In this document: in pieces, positions 2,946 to 36,210 of the stretch
How positions within the stretch are numbered: position 1 is the first letter of the stretch
Layout: each line of letters begins with the position of its first letter
Assembly: GCA_034664845.1 (NCBI GenBank)
Contig: JAXDGW010000027.1
Span: forward strand, 1,687 to 65,686
Source of the DNA: Thermoanaerobaculia bacterium
Lineage (GTDB): Bacteria > Acidobacteriota > Thermoanaerobaculia > Gp7-AA8
Direction: 5' to 3'
DNA length: 64,000 nt
The notes under the pieces: model-generated
What the model was told of the DNA's origin: nothing
Seen by the model: the letters and a program-made list of their open reading frames with translations, nothing else
Databases searched by the model: none
Program-made: the position numbers and the translations under genes

Positions 2946-3110
2946 GCTGTCATCCTGAGGCGCCGTAGGACACGAAGTGCCGAAGGACGATCGAAGGACC
3001 CCCCCCGCTTGTGCAGGGTCGGGCGGCGGTAAGAAACCCTCGCACAAGATCAGGGGGTCCTTCGACGTCCTCCGGCACTTCGTGTCCTTCGGCGGTCTCA
3101 GGATGACAGC
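2946..3110. repeat. palindromic MITE-like intergenic element, diverged copy (GCTGTCATCCTGAG ... CTCAGGATGACAGC termini, nested inverted repeats)
   Basis: Terminal inverted repeats and internal palindromes read in sequence. Related to the copies at 10242-10421 and 17675-17822. Confidence 0.7.
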
Positions 3111-5467: not shown

Positions 5468-6061
5468 TCACGCACGAACACCGAGCTCGTCGCTCCTCCC
5501 GGCATGCTTGACGTTCGCAGGCTTCGTCCCAGCGATCGCGTTGAGCATCTCCTTGTTGAACGCCGGAAGGTCGTCAGGCTTGCGGCTGCTGACGAGATTC
5601 CGGTCGCGGACACACTCGGTGTCCTGCCATTCGGCGCCGGCATTGCGCATGTCGTCCTGCAATGTCGGCCAGCTGGTGATGCGGCGTCCCTTGACGACGC
5701 CTGCCGAGATCAGCAGCCACCCGCCGTGGCAGATGACGGCGATCGGTTTCCCGGCCCGATCCATTTCCTGCACGAATTGTTGTGCGCGCTTGTCGATCCG
5801 CAGGGCGTCACTGTTGATGACTCCGCCAGGAAGGACGACGGCATCAAAGTCGGATGCCCTGGCTCGGTCGAGCGTCAGGTCTATCTTGAATCGGCCGGCT
5901 TTGTCGTGATGCTTCCACCCCTGAACCTCGCCGTCTTTGGGCGACAACAGCAGAGTTTTCGCGCCAGCGCGATCGAGTGCTTCGCACGGGCTGGTCAGCT
6001 CGATCTGCTCGAAGCCGTCTGTAACGATGATTGCGACACGTTTGCCGTTAAGGTCGGTCAT
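5468..6061 (-). CDS. DJ-1/PfpI family protein (class I glutamine amidotransferase-like), ~198 aa
   Basis: KRVAIIVTDGFEQIEL ... KPIAVICHGGWLL (nucleophile-elbow Cys). Start chosen at MTDLNGKRVAII. Confidence 0.85.
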   Translation of the reverse strand: MTDLNGKRVAIIVTDGFEQIELTSPCEALDRAGAKTLLLSPKDGEVQGWKHHDKAGRFKIDLTLDRARASDFDAVVLPGGVINSDALRIDKRAQQFVQEMDRAGKPIAVICHGGWLLISAGVVKGRRITSWPTLQDDMRNAGAEWQDTECVRDRNLVSSRKPDDLPAFNKEMLNAIAGTKPANVKHAGRSDELGVRA

Positions 6062-6164
6062 GGTTGATTGCCTCCAGTAGTTATTTGACATGCAAAACGG
6101 AGACACTCAACAGTGGAGAGCGACGGCACGGGAGCTCGTCCGCAACCGAGGGGCCGGTGCATTG

Positions 6165-6500
6165 CGTTGTAGCGGCCGCCTTCGCGGCCGCAAATATCGG
6201 GCGCGCATTTCGTCCCCCGGGCCGAGCCCGGGGCTGAGTTTGGGCAGCGCGCCTTCGCGCGCACGCGTTGCGGTTTGCCCTTGAAGATCGCGGATGACCG
6301 CCGACGCGTCAATGCCACGGCAACCGTTGCGTGTTCTAGCGGCCGCCTTCGCGGCCGCAAATCTCGGGCGCATTTCGTCCCCCGGGCCGAGCCCGGGGCT
6401 GAGTTTGGGCAGCGCGCCTTCGCGCGCACGTGAGGCGCGAACCGCGACACTTCGTGAATGCTTCGCCCGACCGAATCGTGAATGCTTCGCCCGACCGAAA
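6165..6500. repeat. tandem duplicated structured element: a ~95-bp unit present twice (6170-6268 and 6339-6432), followed by a 22-bp direct repeat x2 (6455-6498)
   Basis: Near-identical copies read directly. Each contains the palindromes gcggccgccttcgcggccgc and cccgggccgagcccggg. No credible ORF. Confidence 0.8.
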
Positions 6501-6512
6501 CAGGCATGGCGC

Positions 6513-6610
6513 TGGCGGAGGCGCGTCGGAATCGAACCGACCCTTCGACGCTTCCGCGCCGAAACAACGGTTTTGAAGACCGCGGGAGCCACCAGACCCC
6601 ATTCGCCTCC
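6513..6610 (-). tRNA. selC: tRNA-Sec (anticodon UCA), 98 nt
   Basis: Reverse complement is GGAGGCGAAUGGGGUCUGGUGGCUCCCGCGGUCUUCAAAACCGUUGUUUCGGCGCGGAAGCGUCGAAGGGUCGGUUCGAUUCCGACGCGCCUCCGCCA. It has an encoded 3' CCA and a 7-8 bp acceptor stem. The D-stem is 6 bp with a 4-nt loop. The anticodon loop CUUCAAA gives U33 plus anticodon UCA. The variable arm is long (about 22 nt) and the T-arm is GTCGG/TTCGATT/CCGAC. Confidence 0.8.
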
Positions 6611-6641
6611 ACAATGGAAGGAACGGGACGATAACACGCTG

Positions 6642-7118
6642 TCACGCCGTCATGCGGCGCCAAAAAAACCGACGGATCAGCGCGTCGAGCGAGAACAAAC
6701 CCGGGCCGAAGGCGAGGATCAGCAGGGAGACGAGCAGATAAAGGAACGGCGCGGCGCTCGTGAACGCTTCCTGATCCTTGAAGAACCCCACCAGCGCTTC
6801 GTGATCGGCGGTCAGGTAGGCGACGAAGAAGTTGATCGTCAGCGGAATCGCGATCAGGCGCGCGGCCAGGCCGAGGAGGAGGAGAAGGCCCCCGACGCAC
6901 TCGAGCGTAGCGACGAAGTGGGCGTTCGCAGCCGGCATCGGGATGTGCAGATGCGTGAGGAAGTCGGTGAACCGGTCGATGTTCTCCAGCTTCCCTTTCC
7001 CGGTCTGAAAAAGCTGCCAGCCGAACATCACGCGGAGGATCAGCAGGAGTGGATCGCGCAGCTTGTCGAATCCGCGCGACATGACCGCGTCGTACCACCG
7101 GACCAGCTTGTCGATCAT
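6642..7118 (-). CDS. DoxX-family membrane protein (BufD-like position in the RiPP operon), 158 aa
   Basis: DoxX-like 4-TM topology; co-oriented with the operon, 9 bp downstream of the DUF2063 gene. Confidence 0.8.
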   Translation of the reverse strand: MIDKLVRWYDAVMSRGFDKLRDPLLLILRVMFGWQLFQTGKGKLENIDRFTDFLTHLHIPMPAANAHFVATLECVGGLLLLLGLAARLIAIPLTINFFVAYLTADHEALVGFFKDQEAFTSAAPFLYLLVSLLILAFGPGLFSLDALIRRFFWRRMTA

Positions 7119-7127
7119 CGCGTTCTC

Positions 7128-7979
7128 CTATTCGGTGATGGCGATTGCGGCGAAGAGCCCCTCGGCGCTCCAGTCGCGGAACCAGGTGAAAAGCTCCTGC
7201 TGCTCCGGCAGCCTTCGGAAGCGGCGCCGGAACGTCATGATGGCACTTCCGATGGTCTCTCCGGAAACGAGGCTGCCGAGAAACGTGAACGCTTCCTGCG
7301 AAAGCGGCGTGCGGTAGACCGAGTAGTCGCGGCGATGAACGGCCAGCCAGCTCTTTCCCCGGCGCGGCCTGATCTGGCCTCCCTCGCGGAACGATTGAAA
7401 CGCTTCGTTCGCATCGTATCGAAACGCCAGCAGGCGCAGCGCCGGGATGGGCGTGAAGCGAATCGCTTCGATCGACTCGGGCGGTACGGTCCCGATCGCA
7501 TCCGCGGGAAGCGGCTCCGCCTCGGCCTCATCGAAGACCTGCGTCATCGCCAGCTCCAGGCGCGCCAGGTCGTACAGAAACGTGCGCTGCTTGATCGTTG
7601 AATCCGCGACGTACCCGGGCAGCTTGTCGCCGAGCCGGTTGAAGGTGTAACTGCGGGACGGAAAGCGCTGCACGTAGCCTTCGACGAGATGCCCGAAGGC
7701 GTGCTCGCCGAGGAAATGTGCGACGGCCGCGTAATCGGCCTCCATCGCTTCCACCATCCGCAGCATGTACATCCCGTGATAGATGCCGAGGCGCTGGATC
7801 GGCTGCAAAGTCTTCGATGGGAGAACGATCGCGTCGACGTCGGAGGCCGCCGCTTCCGCTGCCTCGTACACGTCCCCCGGATGCGTCACCACCGCCTGCA
7901 TCCACTCCTGCAGAGGGGCGAGCGCGAGCTCAGACGGAGGCATACGCAACCTCGTCTGCCACTGCCGGGAGCACTCCAC
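7128..7979 (-). CDS. DUF2063-family protein (MbnC/BufC-like partner of the DUF692 enzyme), 283 aa
   Basis: General DUF2063 pattern (RLGIYHGMY..RMVEA...FLGE..F..LVEGYVQRFP...FLYDLARLELA). Overlaps or immediately follows the DUF692 gene. Confidence 0.7.
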   Translation of the reverse strand: MECSRQWQTRLRMPPSELALAPLQEWMQAVVTHPGDVYEAAEAAASDVDAIVLPSKTLQPIQRLGIYHGMYMLRMVEAMEADYAAVAHFLGEHAFGHLVEGYVQRFPSRSYTFNRLGDKLPGYVADSTIKQRTFLYDLARLELAMTQVFDEAEAEPLPADAIGTVPPESIEAIRFTPIPALRLLAFRYDANEAFQSFREGGQIRPRRGKSWLAVHRRDYSVYRTPLSQEAFTFLGSLVSGETIGSAIMTFRRRFRRLPEQQELFTWFRDWSAEGLFAAIAITE

Positions 7980-8802
7980 TGCTCACCGTTCGGAACGCCT
8001 CCGCCTTCCTCGCCTCGGCATGCACGGTCTCGAAGTCGGGGATGTCGGCATCCCACTCCATCAGCGTGGAGACATTGCCAGTGCGCGCGCAGGCGCGGGC
8101 GTAAAGCTGCCACACCTCGTCGATCACGAAGTCGTTGTGCGTGTCGATGATGTGCGTGCCGTGATTCGTGTGACCGGCCAGGTGAACCTGCACGACGCGA
8201 TCGGCCGGGATGGCATCGACGTACACATTCGGATCGAAGCTGTGATTGAACGAGCTGACGTAGATGTTGTTCACGTCGAGAAGCAGCCCGCAATCGCTCT
8301 CCTGCGCCAGCGCCGCCAGAAAGTCCCACTCGGTCATCGTCGAGCTGGCGAATTCGACGTACGACGAGGGGTTCTCGATCACGAGCGGACATTCCAGAAA
8401 ATCGGAGACGATCTTCACGCGCTCGGCGGTGTGGCGCAGCGACTCCTCGTTGTACGGCATCGGCAGAAGATCGTGGACGTTGCGGCCGCTCACGCCGGTC
8501 CAGCAGAGGTGGTCGGAGACCCAGCGCGCATTGACCGTCGCGGCCAGAGCTTTGAGCTTGCGGAGGTAGTCGAAGTCGATCGGATCGGTGCCGCCGATCG
8601 ACATCGACACGCCGTGGAGCACGATCGGATATTGCTCGGCGATCTTCTCGAGGACAAAACGCGGACGGCCGCCTGTGTCGAGATAGTTTTCGGAGAGCGC
8701 TTCGAACCAATCGACGGAGGGTTGCGTGCCGAGGATGTGCGAGTAGTGCACGGTCCGCAGTCCGACACCGACGCCGAGATCAGGGAGATGGAATCGATTC
8801 AT
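7930..8802 (-). CDS. DUF692 / MbnB-like (UPF0276) TIM-barrel RiPP-modifying enzyme (BufB-like), 290 aa
   Basis: Strong family-typical N-terminus (LGVGVGLRTVHYSHIL...DWFEALSENYL) and full DUF692 length. Confidence 0.85.
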   Translation of the reverse strand: MNRFHLPDLGVGVGLRTVHYSHILGTQPSVDWFEALSENYLDTGGRPRFVLEKIAEQYPIVLHGVSMSIGGTDPIDFDYLRKLKALAATVNARWVSDHLCWTGVSGRNVHDLLPMPYNEESLRHTAERVKIVSDFLECPLVIENPSSYVEFASSTMTEWDFLAALAQESDCGLLLDVNNIYVSSFNHSFDPNVYVDAIPADRVVQVHLAGHTNHGTHIIDTHNDFVIDEVWQLYARACARTGNVSTLMEWDADIPDFETVHAEARKAEAFRTVSSGVLPAVADEVAYASV

Positions 8803-8820
8803 GGGATATCGGGGGGTTGA

Positions 8821-8850
8821 TGAAGGGCAGGCGCCCGGGCCTGCCCTTCA
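8821..8850 (-). terminator. perfect stem-loop (GAAGGGCAGG-CGCCCGGG-CCTGCCCTTC) between the precursor gene and the DUF692 gene; candidate attenuator or partial terminator
   Basis: 11-bp perfect stem read in sequence; no clear U-tract. Confidence 0.45.
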
Positions 8851-8865
8851 TCGCGATGAGGCAGG

Positions 8866-9252
8866 TTACGAAGCCTTCGGCGGAACGGCGCAGCCGCTCT
8901 TGCCTTTGCAATCGTTCTTGCCGCCGGCGCCCTGACCCTTGCAGGCATTCTTGCCGGCGCAGTCGTGCTTGTACTCCTTCGAGGCGCAGCCGCCCTTGCC
9001 CTTGCACGAGTTCTTGCCCGCGCAGCCGGCATCGCCCGACTTGCAGTTGCCGTGGCTCTTACAGCTGTTGAGGCCTTTACAGGCGTGCTTGTCGGCCGCC
9101 TTCGCCGTATCAGCCATCTGCACGGCCTGCGACGACTGGTTGAGGGAAAGCGCGTTCGATTTCACCTGGTCGGCACGCAGACTGGTTCCGGCGCTGAGGC
9201 CGGCCATGACACCACCGAGAACGAGATAACGAGCCAGATCACGACTATTCAT
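8866..9252 (-). CDS. secreted Cys-rich RiPP precursor, bufferin (DUF2282 / BufA)-like, 10 Cys in repeated GKN[SAD]CKG and G[GS]GC[A] motifs, 128 aa
   Basis: N-terminal Sec-type signal peptide (…GLSAGTSLRA|DQ). Low-complexity core with 10 regularly spaced Cys. Strong AGGAGG RBS 5 nt upstream of the ATG. Sits immediately 5' of the DUF692/DUF2063/DoxX genes. Confidence 0.7.
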   Translation of the reverse strand: MNSRDLARYLVLGGVMAGLSAGTSLRADQVKSNALSLNQSSQAVQMADTAKAADKHACKGLNSCKSHGNCKSGDAGCAGKNSCKGKGGCASKEYKHDCAGKNACKGQGAGGKNDCKGKSGCAVPPKAS

Positions 9253-10506: not shown

Positions 10507-11976
10507 ATGGACCGCCGAACGAGACCTGTAGCCATCTGGACCGGCGCAATCGGCTCCATCGCGCTCGTCACCGCGGCCGGCAATGCCATCGGGCTCAATC
10601 CCAGCACCATCGGATTCGCCTACCTCATCGTCGTCCTTCTGATCTCGCTTTGGGGCGGCCTGCTCGCCGGCACGATCTCCTCGGTCCTGGCGACGCTCTG
10701 CTACAACTTCTTTTTCTTTCCGCCGCTCTACACCTTCACGATCGAGAACCCCGCGAACTGGTTTGCTCTCGCTGCCTTTCTCGTCGCCTCGGTCACCGTG
10801 AACCGCCTCGTCGTCGCGGCGCGCGTGCAGGCGGAAAAGGCCGAGCAGCGGCGGACGGAATTGGAGACGCTCTACGGACTGAGCATCGATCTCTTCACCG
10901 CCACGAACCGCGTCGGTGCGCTCGGCGAGGCCGCGGGCCGCGCGCTGAAGCTCCTCGGCGCGCAAGCCGGCGGACTCGTTCTCTTTGACGGCTCGCCGTT
11001 CCGGCAGAACGTCGTTTCGTGGAACGGCGACAAGCCTGACGAGATCGAGGATTTGATCGCCGGTGTGGGACGCCACAAGGAGCCGCTGGAGTTTCCGTCG
11101 CCGCTTGGGCGCGACGTCTATCTCCCTCTGATCGTCGGCGGCAAGACAACAGGCACCCTTGTCGCGCGCGGAACGGAAGCATCGCGGCAGGCACTCGAAT
11201 CCGCCGCGCGGCTCGTCGCCATGGCCGTCGAGCGCGAGCGGTTCATCGAAGAGAATGCCCACGTGCAGGCATTGCGGGAAAGCGAAGCGCTCAAGACCTC
11301 GCTGCTTCGAGCGATCTCCCACGATCTCACCACGCCGATCACTGCCATCACGATCCGCACCGAGTCGATTCGCCGCCGCGCCGGAACCGACGACGAGTTG
11401 CGCGAGGACGCTGGCGCCATCGCCGAGGAGACTGCGCGGCTGCGGAGGCGAATCGACAACCTGCTCGCGATGGCGCGGCTCGAAGCAGGAAAAGCAAAGC
11501 CGCGGATCGAACCGACGCCGCCCGCGGATCTCTTCCGCGCCACACGCGAGAACCTTCCGATCGTCTTCAGCGCCCGCCCGATCACGGTTCACGTCGAGCC
11601 TGACTGTCCCGACGCGAACGTCGATCCATCGCTGGCGCTGGAGATTCTCGTGAACCTCGTCGAGAACGCGCATCGCGTTTCGCCCGCGTCTGCCACGATC
11701 GAGCTCGTCGCGCGCAAACATCCGCTTGATGCGGGCAAGGTTCGGATCGAGATCCTCGACCGCGGCCCCGGACTGCCGCCGGGCGTAGTCGATGCCGATG
11801 GCAACGTCGCCACCGAGACCACCGACGTCGCCCAGCGCGGCCTCGGGCTGGAGATCGCGCGCAGCCTGGCCGCCGCAAATGGCGGAAGCATCGGGCTGGC
11901 GCCACGGCCCGGCGGCGGTACGATCGCGCGCATCGACCTTCCCGCGGCGCTGCTCCCCGAGGAAGTGTCGTCATGA
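10507..11976 (+). CDS. sensor histidine kinase, KdpD C-terminal-like (DUF4118-GAF-HisKA-HATPase) lacking the N-terminal Kdp sensor/USP domains, 489 aa
   Basis: DUF4118 signature (TIGFAYLIVVLLISLWGGLLAGTISSVLATLCYNFFFFPPLYTF), H-box SHDLTTP, G-boxes (GLGLEIARSL). Confidence 0.8.
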   Translation: MDRRTRPVAIWTGAIGSIALVTAAGNAIGLNPSTIGFAYLIVVLLISLWGGLLAGTISSVLATLCYNFFFFPPLYTFTIENPANWFALAAFLVASVTVNRLVVAARVQAEKAEQRRTELETLYGLSIDLFTATNRVGALGEAAGRALKLLGAQAGGLVLFDGSPFRQNVVSWNGDKPDEIEDLIAGVGRHKEPLEFPSPLGRDVYLPLIVGGKTTGTLVARGTEASRQALESAARLVAMAVERERFIEENAHVQALRESEALKTSLLRAISHDLTTPITAITIRTESIRRRAGTDDELREDAGAIAEETARLRRRIDNLLAMARLEAGKAKPRIEPTPPADLFRATRENLPIVFSARPITVHVEPDCPDANVDPSLALEILVNLVENAHRVSPASATIELVARKHPLDAGKVRIEILDRGPGLPPGVVDADGNVATETTDVAQRGLGLEIARSLAAANGGSIGLAPRPGGGTIARIDLPAALLPEEVSS

Positions 11977-12662
11977 CCATCGCGAGCGTGATTCTCATCG
12001 TCGACGACGATCCCGCTATCCGCGATTCGCTATCAAAAGAGCTGCGTGCCGCCGGCTACGCAACCACGACTGCCGCTGATGGCGGAGAAGGCCTCAGCGC
12101 GTTTCAGTCACATGCGCCCGATCTCGTCCTGACCGATCTGGCGATGCCACGCTCGGACGGATTCGAGTTAATCGCCGGCATCCGGGCCACGTCGCGAATC
12201 CCCATCCTCGTGCTCTCGGTCCGCGGCGCCGATGCCGACAAAGTCCGCGCCCTCGACCTCGGCGCCGACGATTTCGTGACCAAGCCGTTCTCGATGGCCG
12301 AGCTGTCCGCCCGCGTCCGCGCACATCTACGCAGAACCACCACGGCATCAACGACAACCCTCGCCTTCCCCGACCTGACGATCGACCTCGACCGCCGCCG
12401 CGTGGTCCAGGGCGGCCGCGAAGTGCGCCTCACGCCGACCGAGTTTTCACTGCTCGAGCTGCTGGCCTCCAACGCTGGCAAACCGCTCTTCATCGAACAG
12501 ATCATCGCCCGCGTCTGGCGCTCCGCACCCAGCACCAGCGCCGATACGGTGCGCGTGCACATGAGCTCCCTGCGAAAAAAGATCGAGCCGAATCCATCAG
12601 AGCCGCAATACATCATCACCGAGCCGTGGGTCGGCTACCGCTTCATCGCGGAACCGGTTTGA
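11973..12662 (+). CDS. OmpR-family response regulator (KdpE-like), 229 aa
   Basis: REC (ILIVDDDPAIRD...LVLTDLAMPRSDG) plus winged helix (…TVRVHMSSLRKKIE…GVGYRF). ATGA overlap with the kinase gene. Confidence 0.85.
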   Translation: MTIASVILIVDDDPAIRDSLSKELRAAGYATTTAADGGEGLSAFQSHAPDLVLTDLAMPRSDGFELIAGIRATSRIPILVLSVRGADADKVRALDLGADDFVTKPFSMAELSARVRAHLRRTTTASTTTLAFPDLTIDLDRRRVVQGGREVRLTPTEFSLLELLASNAGKPLFIEQIIARVWRSAPSTSADTVRVHMSSLRKKIEPNPSEPQYIITEPWVGYRFIAEPV

Positions 12663-31898: not shown

Positions 31899-32303
31899 AT
31901 GCGGAAGCCCACTTCAAGGAAGCGAGTCGCAAGTTCACGTGACGCCGACCGGCGGCGTTTCGAGCGAGCGGCGGAACTGTACCTTCATGCCTGCTACGGC
32001 ACGAAGACGGCAGCGCGGGCCGATGAGTTTGCAACCTATCTCCGCCTGACACGGCCGTACTTAAGCCGCCTCGTTCCGGATCTGATCGGGATGCCGCTCC
32101 GCGATTATCTTCGCGGACAACAGCTCGCGTACGCACAGCACCTGCTCCGAACGATGCCGCTCACAGTCACAGTCGATCAGATCGCGCTCGCCAGCGCCTT
32201 CGGAACGCCGTGGACGTTTTACCGTTGTTTCAAAGACGCGTTCGGAACGACGCCCGCGAAGTTCCGACGAAGCGCCGTGCCGAGGATGCAGAGGACGACG
32301 TAG
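31899..32303 (+). CDS. AraC-family HTH domain protein (HTH-only, N-terminal ligand domain absent), 134 aa
   Basis: AraC HTH_18-like C-terminal pattern (…LRTMPLTVTVDQIALASAFGTPWTFYRCFKDAFGTTPAKFRR). Its 3' end runs into the right direct repeat. Confidence 0.5.
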   Translation: MRKPTSRKRVASSRDADRRRFERAAELYLHACYGTKTAARADEFATYLRLTRPYLSRLVPDLIGMPLRDYLRGQQLAYAQHLLRTMPLTVTVDQIALASAFGTPWTFYRCFKDAFGTTPAKFRRSAVPRMQRTT

Positions 32304-32328
32304 ACGTACTTCATTAGGGCATGGTAGC
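32262..32328. repeat. right copy of the ~66-bp direct repeat; encodes a truncated duplicate of the first 22 codons of gene 21557-21895 on the minus strand
   Basis: Direct sequence match; no ATG precedes the copied codons. Confidence 0.85.
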
Positions 32329-32367
32329 GCGGAGGCCCGGCGAGGCGGCAGGTACAATCCTCCCCGG

Positions 32368-33168
32368 ATGACGCTCCTCCTCGGCTTCTACGCTTTCGCG
32401 ATCGGTGCCATCGTCGGCAGTTTTCTCAACGTCGTCATTCACCGCTATCCACGCGAGGAGTCGATCGTTTTTCCGGGCAGCCATTGCCCGCAGTGCAACG
32501 CTGCCATTCGCTGGTACGACAACATCCCCGTCCTCAGCTTCCTGATCCTGCGCGGACGCTGCCGCGCGTGCGGTGCTCGCATCGCCTGGCGCTATCCGCT
32601 CGTCGAGCTGGCCAACGCTCTTTTCTATCTCGCGACATTCCTTCGCACCGGGCCTACCGTCGCCTTCGTCATCATCGCAGCGATCATCTCGATGACCATC
32701 ACGCTGATCTACATCGATGCCGACATCCAACTGCTTCCTGACGTGATCGACATTCCCGGCATCGCCCTCGGACTCGCCGCCGGCGCTCTTGGCCTCGGCA
32801 TCCTCCACCCCAACCTCGTCCTCGCGGATTCGTTGCTCGACTCACTCTTCGGCGCGCTCCTCGGCGCCGCGATTCCGCTCGTCATCATCGGCACCTACTG
32901 GCTCGTTCGCCGCGCCGAGGGGATGGGGATGGGAGACGTGAAAATGCTGGCGATGATCGGCGCCGTCACCGGATGGCGCGCTGTGCCTGGCGTGCTGCTG
33001 GGCGCGTCGGTCACCGGCGCGCTGATCGTGCTTCCCGCCGCGTTGCGCAGCAGTCACGGCATGCGCCTGATGCTGCCGTTTGGCGTCTTCCTCGGCATCG
33101 CGTTTTTGGGCGTTCTCTTTTTCGGCCCTACACTTGCGGGATGGTACGTTTCGCTCGCGTTCCGCTGA
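32368..33168 (+). CDS. pilD: prepilin peptidase / N-methyltransferase (A24 family), 266 aa
   Basis: N-terminal CxxC…CxxC zinc motif (CPQCNAAI…CRACGARI) and polytopic membrane C-domain with a catalytic Asp region. Confidence 0.9.
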   Translation: MTLLLGFYAFAIGAIVGSFLNVVIHRYPREESIVFPGSHCPQCNAAIRWYDNIPVLSFLILRGRCRACGARIAWRYPLVELANALFYLATFLRTGPTVAFVIIAAIISMTITLIYIDADIQLLPDVIDIPGIALGLAAGALGLGILHPNLVLADSLLDSLFGALLGAAIPLVIIGTYWLVRRAEGMGMGDVKMLAMIGAVTGWRAVPGVLLGASVTGALIVLPAALRSSHGMRLMLPFGVFLGIAFLGVLFFGPTLAGWYVSLAFR

Positions 33169-34859
33169 CCCGCGTCGGGTTTCGCCGGGACGTGAACCTT
33201 TTTCTCACCGGCCTGGTTGGCTTCCTGGTCGTCCTGATCTTCACCCTGCTCCTCCTGCTCAACACCAACCTGGCACACACGGCGGAGGCGATCGACCGCT
33301 CGCATCAGATGATCGCGGATGTCTCTGCCGAGGCGGTGAACCGAAGTCCACCGTCAGCGCTCGGCACGGAGATGCTGGTGCTTCGCGGACGCTTCAACAT
33401 CGCCGGGATCGGCATCAAGGCTCGGGACGGACGCACGTTCGAGTCGGGACTGCGCGCCGGTGAGATACACGATGGGGATTTCGATGTCGTCACCAGACTC
33501 GCCGGCCCGGGTACGCTCACCCTTCGTTTCGACGCCTCGGCGCGCCGAGCCGCGCACCGCGACTTCGTCATCACTGCCGCGATCTGCATCGCTGCGGCGA
33601 GTCTCGGCATCGCGCTGCTGCTTTTCTATCTTCCGCGCCTCACAGGCCCGATCGAACAGATGCTCGACGACGCACGGCAACTCGGCGCTCCGGGCGACCA
33701 GGAGGAGACCGCCTATCTCATCGATACGTTCCGAAGCTCGATCGCGACGCTGAAGAGCCAGGAGGACGAGCTCAAACGGATGCACGACCGCGAGAAGAGC
33801 CGCGCGGACGAGTTGGAGGTCGTGACAGGAGCCCTCACGCGCAGTCTCACTTCGGGGCTGATCGTCATCGACTCCACCGGCGCAGTCGCCGACATCAACG
33901 CCTCGGGCCGCGAGATTCTCGGCCTCGACGCCGCGGCATCCGTGGCCGGCCTCGATCTGCGGCAGGGGATTCCACTGCCCGCCTTCGCAAACAAACTGCA
34001 CGACGCATTCGCGAAGCGCGCGGCCATGAGCCGGATGGAGATCAACGATGCGCAGCCGCTCACCGGCGAGCCGGTCGTCATCGGCCTCACCACGGTTCCG
34101 CTCCGCAACAAGGCCGATGCCTTCCTCGGATTTCTGGCGCTCTTCACCGACCTCTCGCCGATCCGCAGCCTCGAGTCACGCGTCCAGGAGATGACGACTC
34201 TGGCGCAGCTCGGCGAGATCTCGGCCGGCATCGCTCACGAGTTTCGCAGCTCGCTCTCGACGATCCTCGGCTACATGAAACTGGCGCGCAAGGGAGGCGT
34301 GGACGACATCGCAGAGTTGCGCTTGAAGAGTGCGGAGAAAGAAGCCTCGCTCCTCCTGCAGGCCATCGAGCGCCTTCTCGCCTTTGCCGGGCCGGTGCAG
34401 CTCAACGCGGAGACGGTCGATCTTCGTGCGCTGCTTTCCGAGCAGATCGCACAAATGACCGACATCGACTCCGAGATCGCAGTGACGCTCGACGGCCCCG
34501 CGATCACCATCGAGGGTGACCGCATCCTCCTCGGACGCGCGCTCGAAAACCTCCTGCACAACGCCGCGGACGCCGTTCGCCAGAATGGTGGCGGCTCGAT
34601 CGCCGTCACGCTGCGCGACCGGCCGCACATGTCGGTCACGATCGCGGACGACGGCGTCGGTTTCGATCCCGCCGACGGGCCTCGCTTTCTGCTCCCCTTC
34701 CAGTCGAACAAGCCCAACGGCTTCGGAATGGGTCTTCCGCTGGCAAAAAAAATTGTACTTGTGCACGGGGGAACGATCCGCCTGGACAGCCGGGAGGGGC
34801 AGGGCGCGGTCGTCACCGTGGAGTTTGGCGCGTCAGGCTTCCCACTTCCAACCGGCTGA
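33141..34859 (+). CDS. sensor histidine kinase (PilS-like position): TM / PAS-like / HisKA / HATPase, ~572 aa
   Basis: H-box IAHEFRSSLSTILGY, G2 box GFGMGLPLAKKIV. Start chosen at MVRFARV. Confidence 0.75.
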   Translation: MVRFARVPLTRVGFRRDVNLFLTGLVGFLVVLIFTLLLLLNTNLAHTAEAIDRSHQMIADVSAEAVNRSPPSALGTEMLVLRGRFNIAGIGIKARDGRTFESGLRAGEIHDGDFDVVTRLAGPGTLTLRFDASARRAAHRDFVITAAICIAAASLGIALLLFYLPRLTGPIEQMLDDARQLGAPGDQEETAYLIDTFRSSIATLKSQEDELKRMHDREKSRADELEVVTGALTRSLTSGLIVIDSTGAVADINASGREILGLDAAASVAGLDLRQGIPLPAFANKLHDAFAKRAAMSRMEINDAQPLTGEPVVIGLTTVPLRNKADAFLGFLALFTDLSPIRSLESRVQEMTTLAQLGEISAGIAHEFRSSLSTILGYMKLARKGGVDDIAELRLKSAEKEASLLLQAIERLLAFAGPVQLNAETVDLRALLSEQIAQMTDIDSEIAVTLDGPAITIEGDRILLGRALENLLHNAADAVRQNGGGSIAVTLRDRPHMSVTIADDGVGFDPADGPRFLLPFQSNKPNGFGMGLPLAKKIVLVHGGTIRLDSREGQGAVVTVEFGASGFPLPTG

Positions 34860-35004
34860 GCGTTCACACTGCTACCTTTTGTGGCAGTCAGCCCCCGACT
34901 CGGACTTCGTCGGATCGGCAGGCGTTGGCGTAAACTATTCCTGTTCAACCATTTGACCGCGACGCCGGTGTGTGGCACCCGCGTCGCACAAGGGAGCGTT
35001 CCTC

Positions 35005-35580
35005 ATGAGAAAGCAAGCGCGTCGATTGGAGGCCGGGTACAGCCTCACGGAACTGCTGACCGTGGTCGCCATCATCGCAGTCATGTCCCTGATCACCGTC
35101 CCGTCGTTCATCAGCTACAACAATTCCAACAAGATCAAAGTGGCCATGCGAGCATTCAGCGCGGACCTTCGAACCGCGCGCGCGACGGCGATCTCTCAGG
35201 GGCGTGAAGTGAAGTTGACCTTCAAGACCGGCGCGAACCTTCGAAACTACAGTTTGTACCTTGGCGACCGCGCCTTTGGAACGGTACCGACGGCAAACTG
35301 GACGCCCCTCACAGGCGCCGGCTCGAGCTCTGCGCGGGCCTTCAAGACTCTCGATCCGGTTATCTATTTTCCTGATGATGGGACGTCGACACCGCAGACG
35401 TTTACCGATCTCGACCCCACGCCCGATGGCTGGCTCGACGTCATATTTTTCCCCGACGGGCACGCGCAGCTACCAACCGGCGCGACTTCGGGAACCATCA
35501 CCATCAAGACCGACATGAGAGTACCGAAGGTGTCGTACGCGATCACCATCAGCCCCAGCGGCCGGGTGCTGGCGCAGTAA
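35005..35580 (+). CDS. type IV minor pilin / pseudopilin, FimT/GspH-like, ~191 aa
   Basis: Class III signal: …EAG|YSLTELLTVVAIIAVMS with Glu+5. Confidence 0.7.
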   Translation: MRKQARRLEAGYSLTELLTVVAIIAVMSLITVPSFISYNNSNKIKVAMRAFSADLRTARATAISQGREVKLTFKTGANLRNYSLYLGDRAFGTVPTANWTPLTGAGSSSARAFKTLDPVIYFPDDGTSTPQTFTDLDPTPDGWLDVIFFPDGHAQLPTGATSGTITIKTDMRVPKVSYAITISPSGRVLAQ

Positions 35581-35596
35581 CCCGAGGACGAGACCA

Positions 35597-36196
35597 ATGA
35601 AGAGACGAGAACGAAACGGCTACAGCTTGATCGAAGTACTGGTCGCAATCGCCATCACCAGCATCGTTCTATTGACCGTCATCACACTGTTTTATATGGG
35701 CCGGCGCAACATTTACAGCGGCAAACAGCAGACGGCAGCAGTGGCAGTGGGTACGCAGATCCTCGAGGACTTCTCGACAATGACCGCTCAGGATCTTGGA
35801 ACCAATTTCAGTATGACGGACGCCACCACACCTGGCACAGTCACACTACAGAATGTCGCCGAGGCTGGGGGCGGGTCATTGTCATTTGACAACAGCATCG
35901 GACGTGATTCGAGCGGTTGCACGATTGCCGCGACAACTCCGTACGCGATCTCCTGCTCAAACGATCCCAATGGATACATGGCCAAGTGGCTGCGGGCGGT
36001 GGCTCCGCAAGCGAATCAGGACAGCGTCCTTACCAACCCGCTGATCGGGGTCGTATTCACGCCCCGCAGCCCAACCGACGCCGCCAAGAAATTTACAACT
36101 GCCCAGTTCATCAGGGCCCGCATTTATGTCTCGTGGCTGGAAGGCGCTAAAAGGCGCCGTTATGCATTCTTCGACACTACCAAAGTGAACCGATAG
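35597..36196 (+). CDS. type IV minor pilin PilV-like, 199 aa
   Basis: RNG|YSLIEVLVAIAITSIV prepilin N-terminus. Confidence 0.65.
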   Translation: MKRRERNGYSLIEVLVAIAITSIVLLTVITLFYMGRRNIYSGKQQTAAVAVGTQILEDFSTMTAQDLGTNFSMTDATTPGTVTLQNVAEAGGGSLSFDNSIGRDSSGCTIAATTPYAISCSNDPNGYMAKWLRAVAPQANQDSVLTNPLIGVVFTPRSPTDAAKKFTTAQFIRARIYVSWLEGAKRRRYAFFDTTKVNR

Positions 36197-36210
36197 CTCA
36201 GGAGCAGGTC

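Follow-up and report, generated by a model that had tools for sequence, protein, structure and literature searches.

In the bacterial selenocysteine pathway, serine is loaded onto tRNA-Sec by SerRS, which relies on the long variable arm and G73; the serine is then converted to selenocysteine by SelA, which relies on a D arm with a 6-bp stem and a 4-nt loop and uses selenophosphate from SelD; finally, SelB brings the Sec-tRNA to a UGA codon with its SECIS hairpin by way of the 13-layer acceptor/T helix. The 6-bp/4-nt D arm, the long variable arm, the 5-bp T stem, G73, and CCA are described as determinants for SelA, SerRS, and SelB (PMC7609411). Two kinds of tRNA come close to this type, i.e. 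the allo-tRNAs known from Acidobacteria and the selC* tRNAs, which imitate tRNA-Sec (PMC5389517). The gene for tRNA-Sec, selC, is also a documented genomic-island site in E. coli (PMC6174562). Bufferin gene clusters, the second system of relevance here, have a bufABCD architecture and encode copper-binding bufferins (PMC11626156).

Here, we analyzed a 64-kb stretch of DNA (in the following, the window) from an uncultured Thermoanaerobaculia-type acidobacterium in which a candidate selC gene lies directly beside a bufferin operon. Taking all the evidence together, we consider it very likely that the gene is a genuine selC, that it probably has its own promoter, that it holds an inherited place beside the bufferin operon without being coupled to it, and that its 3' flank is a rearrangement breakpoint. 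The window is near-identical to a 128-kb JGI metagenome contig (3300044722 Ga0467039_0000060). Compared with this contig, it carries 116 substitutions at 13–847, all of them in the 3' half of a gene for a GlnA-like ligase, and two further isolated SNPs at 3005 and 10384; the patch of 116 substitutions could reflect strain-level recombination or a chimeric assembly.

Identity of the tRNA gene

The initial annotation had described the gene as a bacterial tRNA-Sec with the anticodon UCA, a D arm consisting of a 6-bp stem and a 4-nt loop, a very long variable arm, and an encoded CCA. Gene finding, covariance-model search, and folding converged on the same gene:

6513–6610, minus strand: selC, tRNA-Sec with anticodon UCA, 98 nt including the encoded CCA (ARAGORN, Rfam RF01852, cloverleaf fold)

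ARAGORN called a single tRNA in the whole window, a tRNA-SeC with the anticodon tca at position 35. The tRNA-Sec model of Rfam (RF01852) gave a full-model match at 6517–6610 on the minus strand (71.1 bits, E 1.5e-12; the gathering score is 47). In the RNA fold, the minimum free energy structure and the centroid are identical and correspond to the cloverleaf (−48.6 kcal/mol; z −2.65 vs shuffles). Specifically, the acceptor stem has seven Watson–Crick pairs and an A8·G87 mismatch at the eighth position and is followed by a 2-nt linker; the D arm has a 6-bp stem (GGGGUC/GGCUCC) and a 4-nt loop (UGGU) in both the minimum free energy structure and the centroid; the anticodon arm has a 5-bp stem and a 7-nt loop (CUUCAAA); the variable arm of 22 nt forms a 9-bp stem capped by GGAA; the T stem comprises 5 bp (GUCGG/CCGAC); and the 3' end consists of a discriminator G (G73) and the encoded CCA. 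All of the features originally listed are, therefore, present in the fold, including the 6/4 D arm on which the assignment had been made to depend, and the earlier description was right as far as it went; what it lacked was the strand, which is minus, and the mismatched eighth pair of the acceptor stem.

We then compared the gene with its relatives using the exact 36-nt core of the tRNA, comprising the D arm and the anticodon arm, as a query against species-representative genomes. The core occurs in 67 species genomes, of which 54 belong to Acidobacteriota (mostly labelled Thermoanaerobaculia) and 13 to Spirochaetota; from this distribution, the source of the window is most likely an uncultured Thermoanaerobaculia species. 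Across the ~54 species-level acidobacterial genomes, the tRNA-Sec sequence is near-invariant. Among 14 distinct acidobacterial tRNA-Sec sequences, 96.8% of the cells are paired, the discriminator is G in all 14, and changes that preserve pairing occur in the variable and T stems, namely at 48:67 (UA to GU, a compensatory change), at 47:68 (UG, UA or CG), and at 72:84 in the T stem (CG to UG). Because the search pattern fixed the columns of the D arm and the anticodon arm, which could not vary among the 14 relatives, the invariance of the D arm in this comparison is uninformative.

Spirochaete loci have this core between selD and selA-selB, which ties this type of tRNA sequence to the selenocysteine pathway. 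The 13 Spirochaetota with an identical 36-nt core (L005, L008, L009, L023, L024, L026, L033, L043, L046, L051, L052, L062, and L067) differ from the acidobacterial tRNA-Sec in the acceptor, variable, and T arms, and in four GC-rich spirochaete loci (L009, L023, L026, and L043) a cluster of selC, selD, selA, and selB is present. The shared core points either to a very strong constraint or to transfer between the phyla.

A different identity has to be considered, namely that the gene encodes a suppressor resembling tRNA-Sec, which could be an acidobacterial allo-tRNA (8/4 or 9/3, anticodon UCA) or a selC* tRNA-Cys. Such allo-tRNAs do occur in Acidobacteria, selC* mimics exist (PMC5389517), and with its eighth acceptor pair open the helix of the window tRNA has strictly only 12 Watson–Crick pairs. 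However, the T stem has 5 bp as opposed to 4 or 3 in allo-tRNAs, and this stem is kept in relatives that have the C-G to U-G change, which does not fit the 8/4 and 9/3 forms. Similarly, the G discriminator in the window and in the 14 distinct relatives, where selC* has U73, does not fit a selC* tRNA-Cys. The D arm has the 6-bp/4-nt form recognized by SelA, the Rfam tRNA-Sec score is 24 bits over the threshold, and the same 36-nt core is found in spirochaete genomes between selD and selA-selB. Based on these findings, we regard a Sec-like suppressor as extremely improbable; the gene is, judged by its sequence, a genuine selC encoding tRNA-Sec(UCA), and it is an ordinary one of an already-known kind that routine annotation tools detect.

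As had been stated initially, the window itself contains no selA, selB or selD: these genes were not found among the called genes of the 64 kb in Pfam scans, and tblastn searches against the six frames of the window with SelA, SelB, and SelD returned nothing below E = 1. The queries in these searches were the proteins of the spirochaete loci, confirmed by Pfam (SelA; GTP_EFTU and SelB-wing; AIRS). About 12 kb more of the contig (10 kb on the right and 3.4 kb on the left) likewise had no selA, selB or selD, and selenoprotein genes were seen neither in the window nor in these flanks. These results bear on the possibility that the gene is a relic, i.e. an orphan selC kept by a genome no longer able to decode selenocysteine. 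The absence of sel genes from ~76 kb of contig would fit a relic, as would the outcome of a literature search, which found no paper that joins Thermoanaerobaculia to selenocysteine. By contrast, the cloverleaf is intact and the CCA is encoded, the sequence is near-invariant in the ~54 species-level genomes with changes that keep pairing, and the motif upstream of the gene is conserved (see below). Moreover, selC lies apart from selAB and selD in many bacteria, E. coli included. We consider a relic very unlikely. We infer the function of this selC from its conservation, the rest of the genome lying beyond the window and the ~12 kb that were read in addition. As a functional gene, the window tRNA would act in the textbook route from SerRS through SelA and SelD to SelB, and the selenoprotein genes of the organism would lie elsewhere in its genome. 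The presence of selC makes selenocysteine decoding probable in this uncultured acidobacterial lineage.

The acceptor/T helix of the window tRNA has 13 layers, of which 12 are standard pairs. Because the eighth pair (8:87) is an A·G mismatch, the acceptor stem is not a strict 8-bp stem. This is not peculiar to the window: 8:87 is non-standard in 14 of 14 distinct Thermoanaerobaculia sequences (A·G, A·A, A·C or C·A), and both columns vary (tRNA positions 87 and 8 correspond to 6523 and 6603 of the window; the relatives compared range from L003 to L071). In the closely related metagenome contig L003, the tRNA is identical to that of the window except at position 87. In eukaryotic tRNA-Sec, a non-Watson–Crick acceptor pair, 5a:67b, is functionally required (PMC7609411). 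Because non-Watson–Crick acceptor pairs are required there, the 8:87 mismatch may be meaningful as well, and it may be a putative determinant for SelB or against EF-Tu. More speculatively, and with the odds in our estimate clearly against it, the tRNA-Sec of Thermoanaerobaculia could be a distinct 8/5 variant in which an obligatory non-Watson–Crick eighth layer tunes acceptance by SelB or rejection by EF-Tu, much as 5a:67b is required in eukaryotes; an even weaker addition to this idea is that selC could be a small mobile unit that has its own promoter. The conserved acceptor mismatch is of possible interest for studies of how SelB and EF-Tu discriminate between tRNAs and for the engineering of tRNA-Sec.

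The bufferin operon and the placement of selC

Upstream of selC and on the same strand lies an operon of four genes, listed here from the tRNA outward:

6642–7118, minus strand: DoxX (BufD/HvfX-like), last gene of the operon (Pfam DoxX, E 1.7e-18)
7128–7979, minus strand: DUF2063/HvfC-type partner, BufC-like (Pfam DUF2063, E 5.2e-15; the public call is 271 aa with HvfC_N)
7930–8802, minus strand: MNIO (DUF692) maturase BufB (Pfam MbnB_TglH_ChrH, E 3.6e-109; NCBIfam MNIO_BufB, 364 bits, above the cutoff of 310)
8866–9252, minus strand: BufA2-like precursor of 128 aa with 10 Cys and a TAA stop (translation; NCBIfam Cu_RiPP_BufA2, 45.7 bits, below the cutoff of 60)

A Cys-rich precursor, the MNIO enzyme BufB, a DUF2063 partner, and DoxX are, thus, united in one operon, as is characteristic of a bufferin biosynthetic gene cluster, in which DoxX is an optional part (PMC11626156). 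The DoxX protein scored 57.9 bits against the NCBIfam HvfX family, which is under the cutoff of 80, and the signal-like segment at the N-terminus of the precursor was read from the sequence by eye and not with a predictor. Between the stop codon of the precursor gene and the start of bufB, at 8805–8860 on the minus strand, lies a GC-rich hairpin (GATGAAGGGCAGGC...GCCTGCCCTTCATC) that could set the ratio of precursor to enzyme expression. Divergent to the operon, at 10507–12662, is a pair of genes for a DUF4118 histidine kinase and an OmpR-type response regulator, which is kept in L003, L007, and L049 and is a candidate regulator of the buf operon.

The doxX stop codon is a TGA at 6642–6644, from which 31 nt lead to the 5' end of the co-oriented tRNA; the ORF coordinates, thus, agree with the 31 bp and the shared strand given in the initial annotation. 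This annotation had also raised the question of whether UGA is recoded in the locus. We found no in-frame TGA in bufA, bufB, bufC or doxX; all four genes are uninterrupted and of full length relative to the family models, and the precursor gene ends in TAA. When all 64 kb were scanned for TGA codons that have coding-like GC3 to either side, two sites were returned, and both lie antisense to well-annotated genes, those of a T2SS ATPase and a secretin. With uninterrupted buf genes and antisense sites only in the TGA scan, nothing in the locus points to UGA recoding, and we rejected this suggestion.

To describe where selC is placed in relatives, ORFs were called at every locus and clustered, and representatives were searched with Pfam. 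The 54 acidobacterial genomes fall into the following contexts:

~38 genomes: selC flanked by a prepilin peptidase (A24) gene on one side and by exbD-exbD-exbB-tonB on the other
8 genomes: a second context with a PagL-like gene or a histidine kinase gene upstream and a histidine kinase gene downstream of selC
4 genomes (L007, L021, L037, and L049): buf operon upstream of selC
2 genomes (L015 and L064): giant-protein gene downstream of selC, upstream side out of view
2 genomes: other, or too short for classification

A metagenome scan with a clade-specific pattern of the tRNA returned only three contigs. A buf operon lies upstream of selC also in the metagenome contigs L003 and L074. DoxX was found upstream of selC only in the window, L003, L007, L021, L037, L049, and L074. 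Within this sub-clade, the proteins of the buf operon are 69–90% identical to those of the window, and the distance from DoxX to selC is 31 nt in the window, ~51 nt in L049, ~101 nt in L003, ~111 nt in L074, and ~119 nt in L037, and it amounts to ~1060 nt in L007 and ~2577 nt in L021, both of which have unrelated intervening ORFs. In L004, which has the next closest buf operon (BufB 83% identical), a radical SAM gene, and no tRNA, comes after the operon. Because the relatives mostly place selC elsewhere, the combination of buf operon and selC is a lineage-specific arrangement and does not represent a functional unit under conservation. It seems to reflect gene order inherited in one small sub-clade rather than a functional link. 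The adjacency itself is real, but the initial view of this placement as unusual loses weight, as only one small sub-clade has it and its spacing varies.

The site that is typical of the class is also represented in the window:

32368–33168, plus strand: prepilin peptidase (A24) gene (tblastn, 63% identity to the selC neighbour of the relatives; Pfam A24 on the protein of a relative)

At this site in the window, the upstream gene, which encodes an AraC-type HTH regulator (Pfam), takes the place of selC and exbD. We also observed that the cluster of A24, histidine kinase, GspH, and large pilin genes, which forms the class-typical flank of selC, is present at 32.4–39.3 kb, within the interval 31899–39297. 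In the A24/exbD group, the orientation of selC relative to the same neighbours is one way in 27 loci and the other way in 10, with 1 ambiguous locus; among the loci of this group from L006 to L071 (e.g. L013 vs L031, L048, and L061), it is as if selC and its promoter had undergone inversion at the site. If the idea of selC as a small mobile unit were true, selC would relocate among four neighbourhoods and invert at one of them, together with its promoter.

In the spacer between doxX and selC, we identified one candidate promoter element:

6628–6636, minus strand: extended −10-like motif TGTTATCGT, which starts 5 nt after the doxX stop and ends 17 nt before the 5' end of the tRNA

Of 55 acidobacterial loci, 27 have a strict version of this motif, TG[CT]TATC[GT]T (TGYTATCKT), in the 60 nt upstream of selC; the background expectation is 0.00015 per 60 nt. 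Across loci, it ends 14–29 nt before the mature 5' end of the tRNA, and it is found in all four types of selC neighbourhood, whatever gene is upstream. Between the window and L003, a block upstream of selC (GCGTGTTATCGTCC) is conserved while the remaining spacer is unrelated. The motif resembles an extended −10 element (TGnTATnnT), and in some loci a TTGTAn box is present 16 nt upstream of it; a generic sigma-70 scan found no promoter. Because the motif recurs upstream of selC regardless of the upstream gene, it suggests that selC has its own promoter, a function that we infer from the motif; in the window, selC would use TGTTATCGT in the 31-nt spacer as an extended −10-type promoter. A terminator scan returned two terminator-like sites, both of which are inside doxX, and their count is not above that in shuffles. 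One observation of this kind is a terminator-like hairpin followed by T7 in the last doxX codons (6659–6688, minus strand), directly before the selC motif.

The co-orientation of selC and the buf operon in all members of the sub-clade and the 31-nt gap make co-transcription possible, and with its own promoter selC would not require possible read-through from the operon. We weighed whether the two are coupled, either by co-transcription, such that copper stress would raise tRNA-Sec, or by UGA recoding in the locus. Besides the gap of only 31 nt in the window, coupling is favoured by the fact that selC is on the same strand as the operon in seven of seven sub-clade loci and that the interval between doxX and selC has no convincing terminator. 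Yet the buf genes have no in-frame TGA and the precursor gene ends in TAA, the gap between DoxX and selC varies widely (31 nt to 2.6 kb) and in L007 and L021 contains unrelated ORFs, selC is missing beside the next closest buf operon (L004), most of the class places selC elsewhere, and the promoter-like motif moves along with selC. The chance that selC and the bufferin operon are coupled is, in our view, slight, and we favour an independently transcribed selC in an inherited position. The gene is a standard selC whose proximity to a bufferin operon carries no evident functional message and matters little in itself.

The 3' flank of selC

On the other side of the tRNA, the initial annotation had noted a repeat-rich region and asked whether selC marks an integration hotspot. 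The features between selC and the first downstream gene are:

6452–6499, no strand assigned: 24-nt unit in two perfect tandem copies (repeat family D4), beginning 13 nt past the tRNA 3' end
6166–6437, no strand assigned: local duplication of two ~100-nt copies that are 92–97% identical and ~165 nt apart (repeat families D1–D3)
5468–6106, minus strand: DJ-1/PfpI, first gene after selC (Pfam DJ-1_PfpI, E 2.9e-51)

The ~100-nt copies are located at about 6166–6272 and 6333–6437 (blastn: 6170–6265 and 6337–6430), and each of them has three GC-rich hairpins whose loops are of the GAAG or UCG type; the fold of the duplication is not better than that of shuffles (z −0.64). Using blastn, we found no other copies of the downstream repeats in the window or in at least 70 related loci, and against Rfam they gave sub-threshold matches only (e.g. 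PinT with 28 bits vs 60). We, therefore, rejected the repeats as a dispersed element or a known RNA, as they exist in local copies only and match no Rfam family at threshold. The repeat-rich region is, accordingly, real but purely local.

The DJ-1/PfpI gene is followed by genes for two response regulators, a SemiSWEET-like protein, EamA, an aldehyde dehydrogenase, and the GlnA-like ligase (Pfam). This block stands where relatives carry a gene for a giant secreted protein (c11), which follows selC in the buf-selC relatives L003, L007, L021, and L037 and also in L015, L064, and L076, in which the upstream side is out of view; no homologue of c11 was found in the window. The homology between the window and L003 ends exactly at the CCA end of the tRNA. 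From this break in gene order, the 3' flank of selC is a rearrangement breakpoint in this lineage. At other loci, additional genes were observed beside selC: in L035, a PIN-domain toxin gene (Pfam PIN, E 3.6e-9) directly follows selC and precedes exbD, and in L016 and L058 a DUF2127 gene and a membrane-protein gene lie at the same place between selC and exbD.

One explanation for the breakpoint is that selC marks an integration site of an island and that site-specific recombination at the tRNA brought in the repeats and the block from DJ-1 to the GlnA-like gene, by insertion or exchange. That the L003 homology stops exactly at the CCA end, that relatives share c11 after selC while the window has another block without it, that small insertions are found beside selC elsewhere (the PIN toxin in L035, DUF2127 in L016 and L058), and that islands are known to occupy selC in E. 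coli (PMC6174562) are all in line with such an event. However, the genes in the 9.9 kb after the tRNA include neither an integrase nor a transposase. A search of the window with the 26-nt 3' end of the tRNA, allowing up to three mismatches, matched the tRNA itself only. The best blastn-short match to the tRNA is 14 nt of the T arm at 1770–1783, which lies inside the intact aldehyde dehydrogenase ORF and which we judged to be a chance match and not an att-type repeat. The GC content of the flank is 60–65%, as in the remaining window, and the genes of the block are ordinary housekeeping and regulatory genes. The hallmarks of an island, an integrase beside the tRNA and a distal repeat of its 3' end, were, thus, absent from the sequence that was read, and the far end of any island would fall beyond this sequence. 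For the hotspot question, this leaves the synteny break at the tRNA 3' end on one side and the lack of an integrase, a transposase, a 3'-end repeat, and a compositional anomaly on the other; support for a hotspot is weak and circumstantial, and we consider island integration by site-specific recombination unlikely. The comparison shows that the flank of selC is a recurrent point of rearrangement even without recognizable mobile-element genes.

Comparison with known systems

With tRNA-Sec of the E. coli bacterial type (RF01852, 8/5), the window tRNA shares the UCA anticodon, the 6/4 D arm, the 9-bp variable stem, the 5-bp T stem, G73, and CCA, and it likewise has 13 stacked acceptor/T layers, 12 of them standard pairs; it differs in that 8:87 is never a standard pair in its class. 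The allo-tRNAs and selC* tRNA-Cys (PMC5389517) are likewise Sec-like and have long variable arms and extended acceptor stems, but they have 8/4 or 9/3 domains or U73, whereas in the window tRNA the T stem is 5 bp long, the discriminator is G73, and the D arm is that found in tRNA-Sec. In contrast to the spirochaete selC loci, which are linked to selA, selB, and selD, selC in the window is not linked to these genes.

As at the selC islands of E. coli (LEE and others), the upstream gene order is lost exactly at the 3' end of the tRNA; unlike these islands, the window has no integrase, no att-like repeat, and no compositional shift, and the genes are ordinary ones. Finally, the operon beside selC has all four parts of the bufABCD architecture of bufferin clusters of the BufA2 or BUF_6/12Cys type (PMC11626156), although its precursor, with 10 Cys, scores below the cutoff of the BufA2 model. 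A tRNA-Sec is not among these four parts, and in the window it is a lineage-specific neighbour of the bufferin operon.
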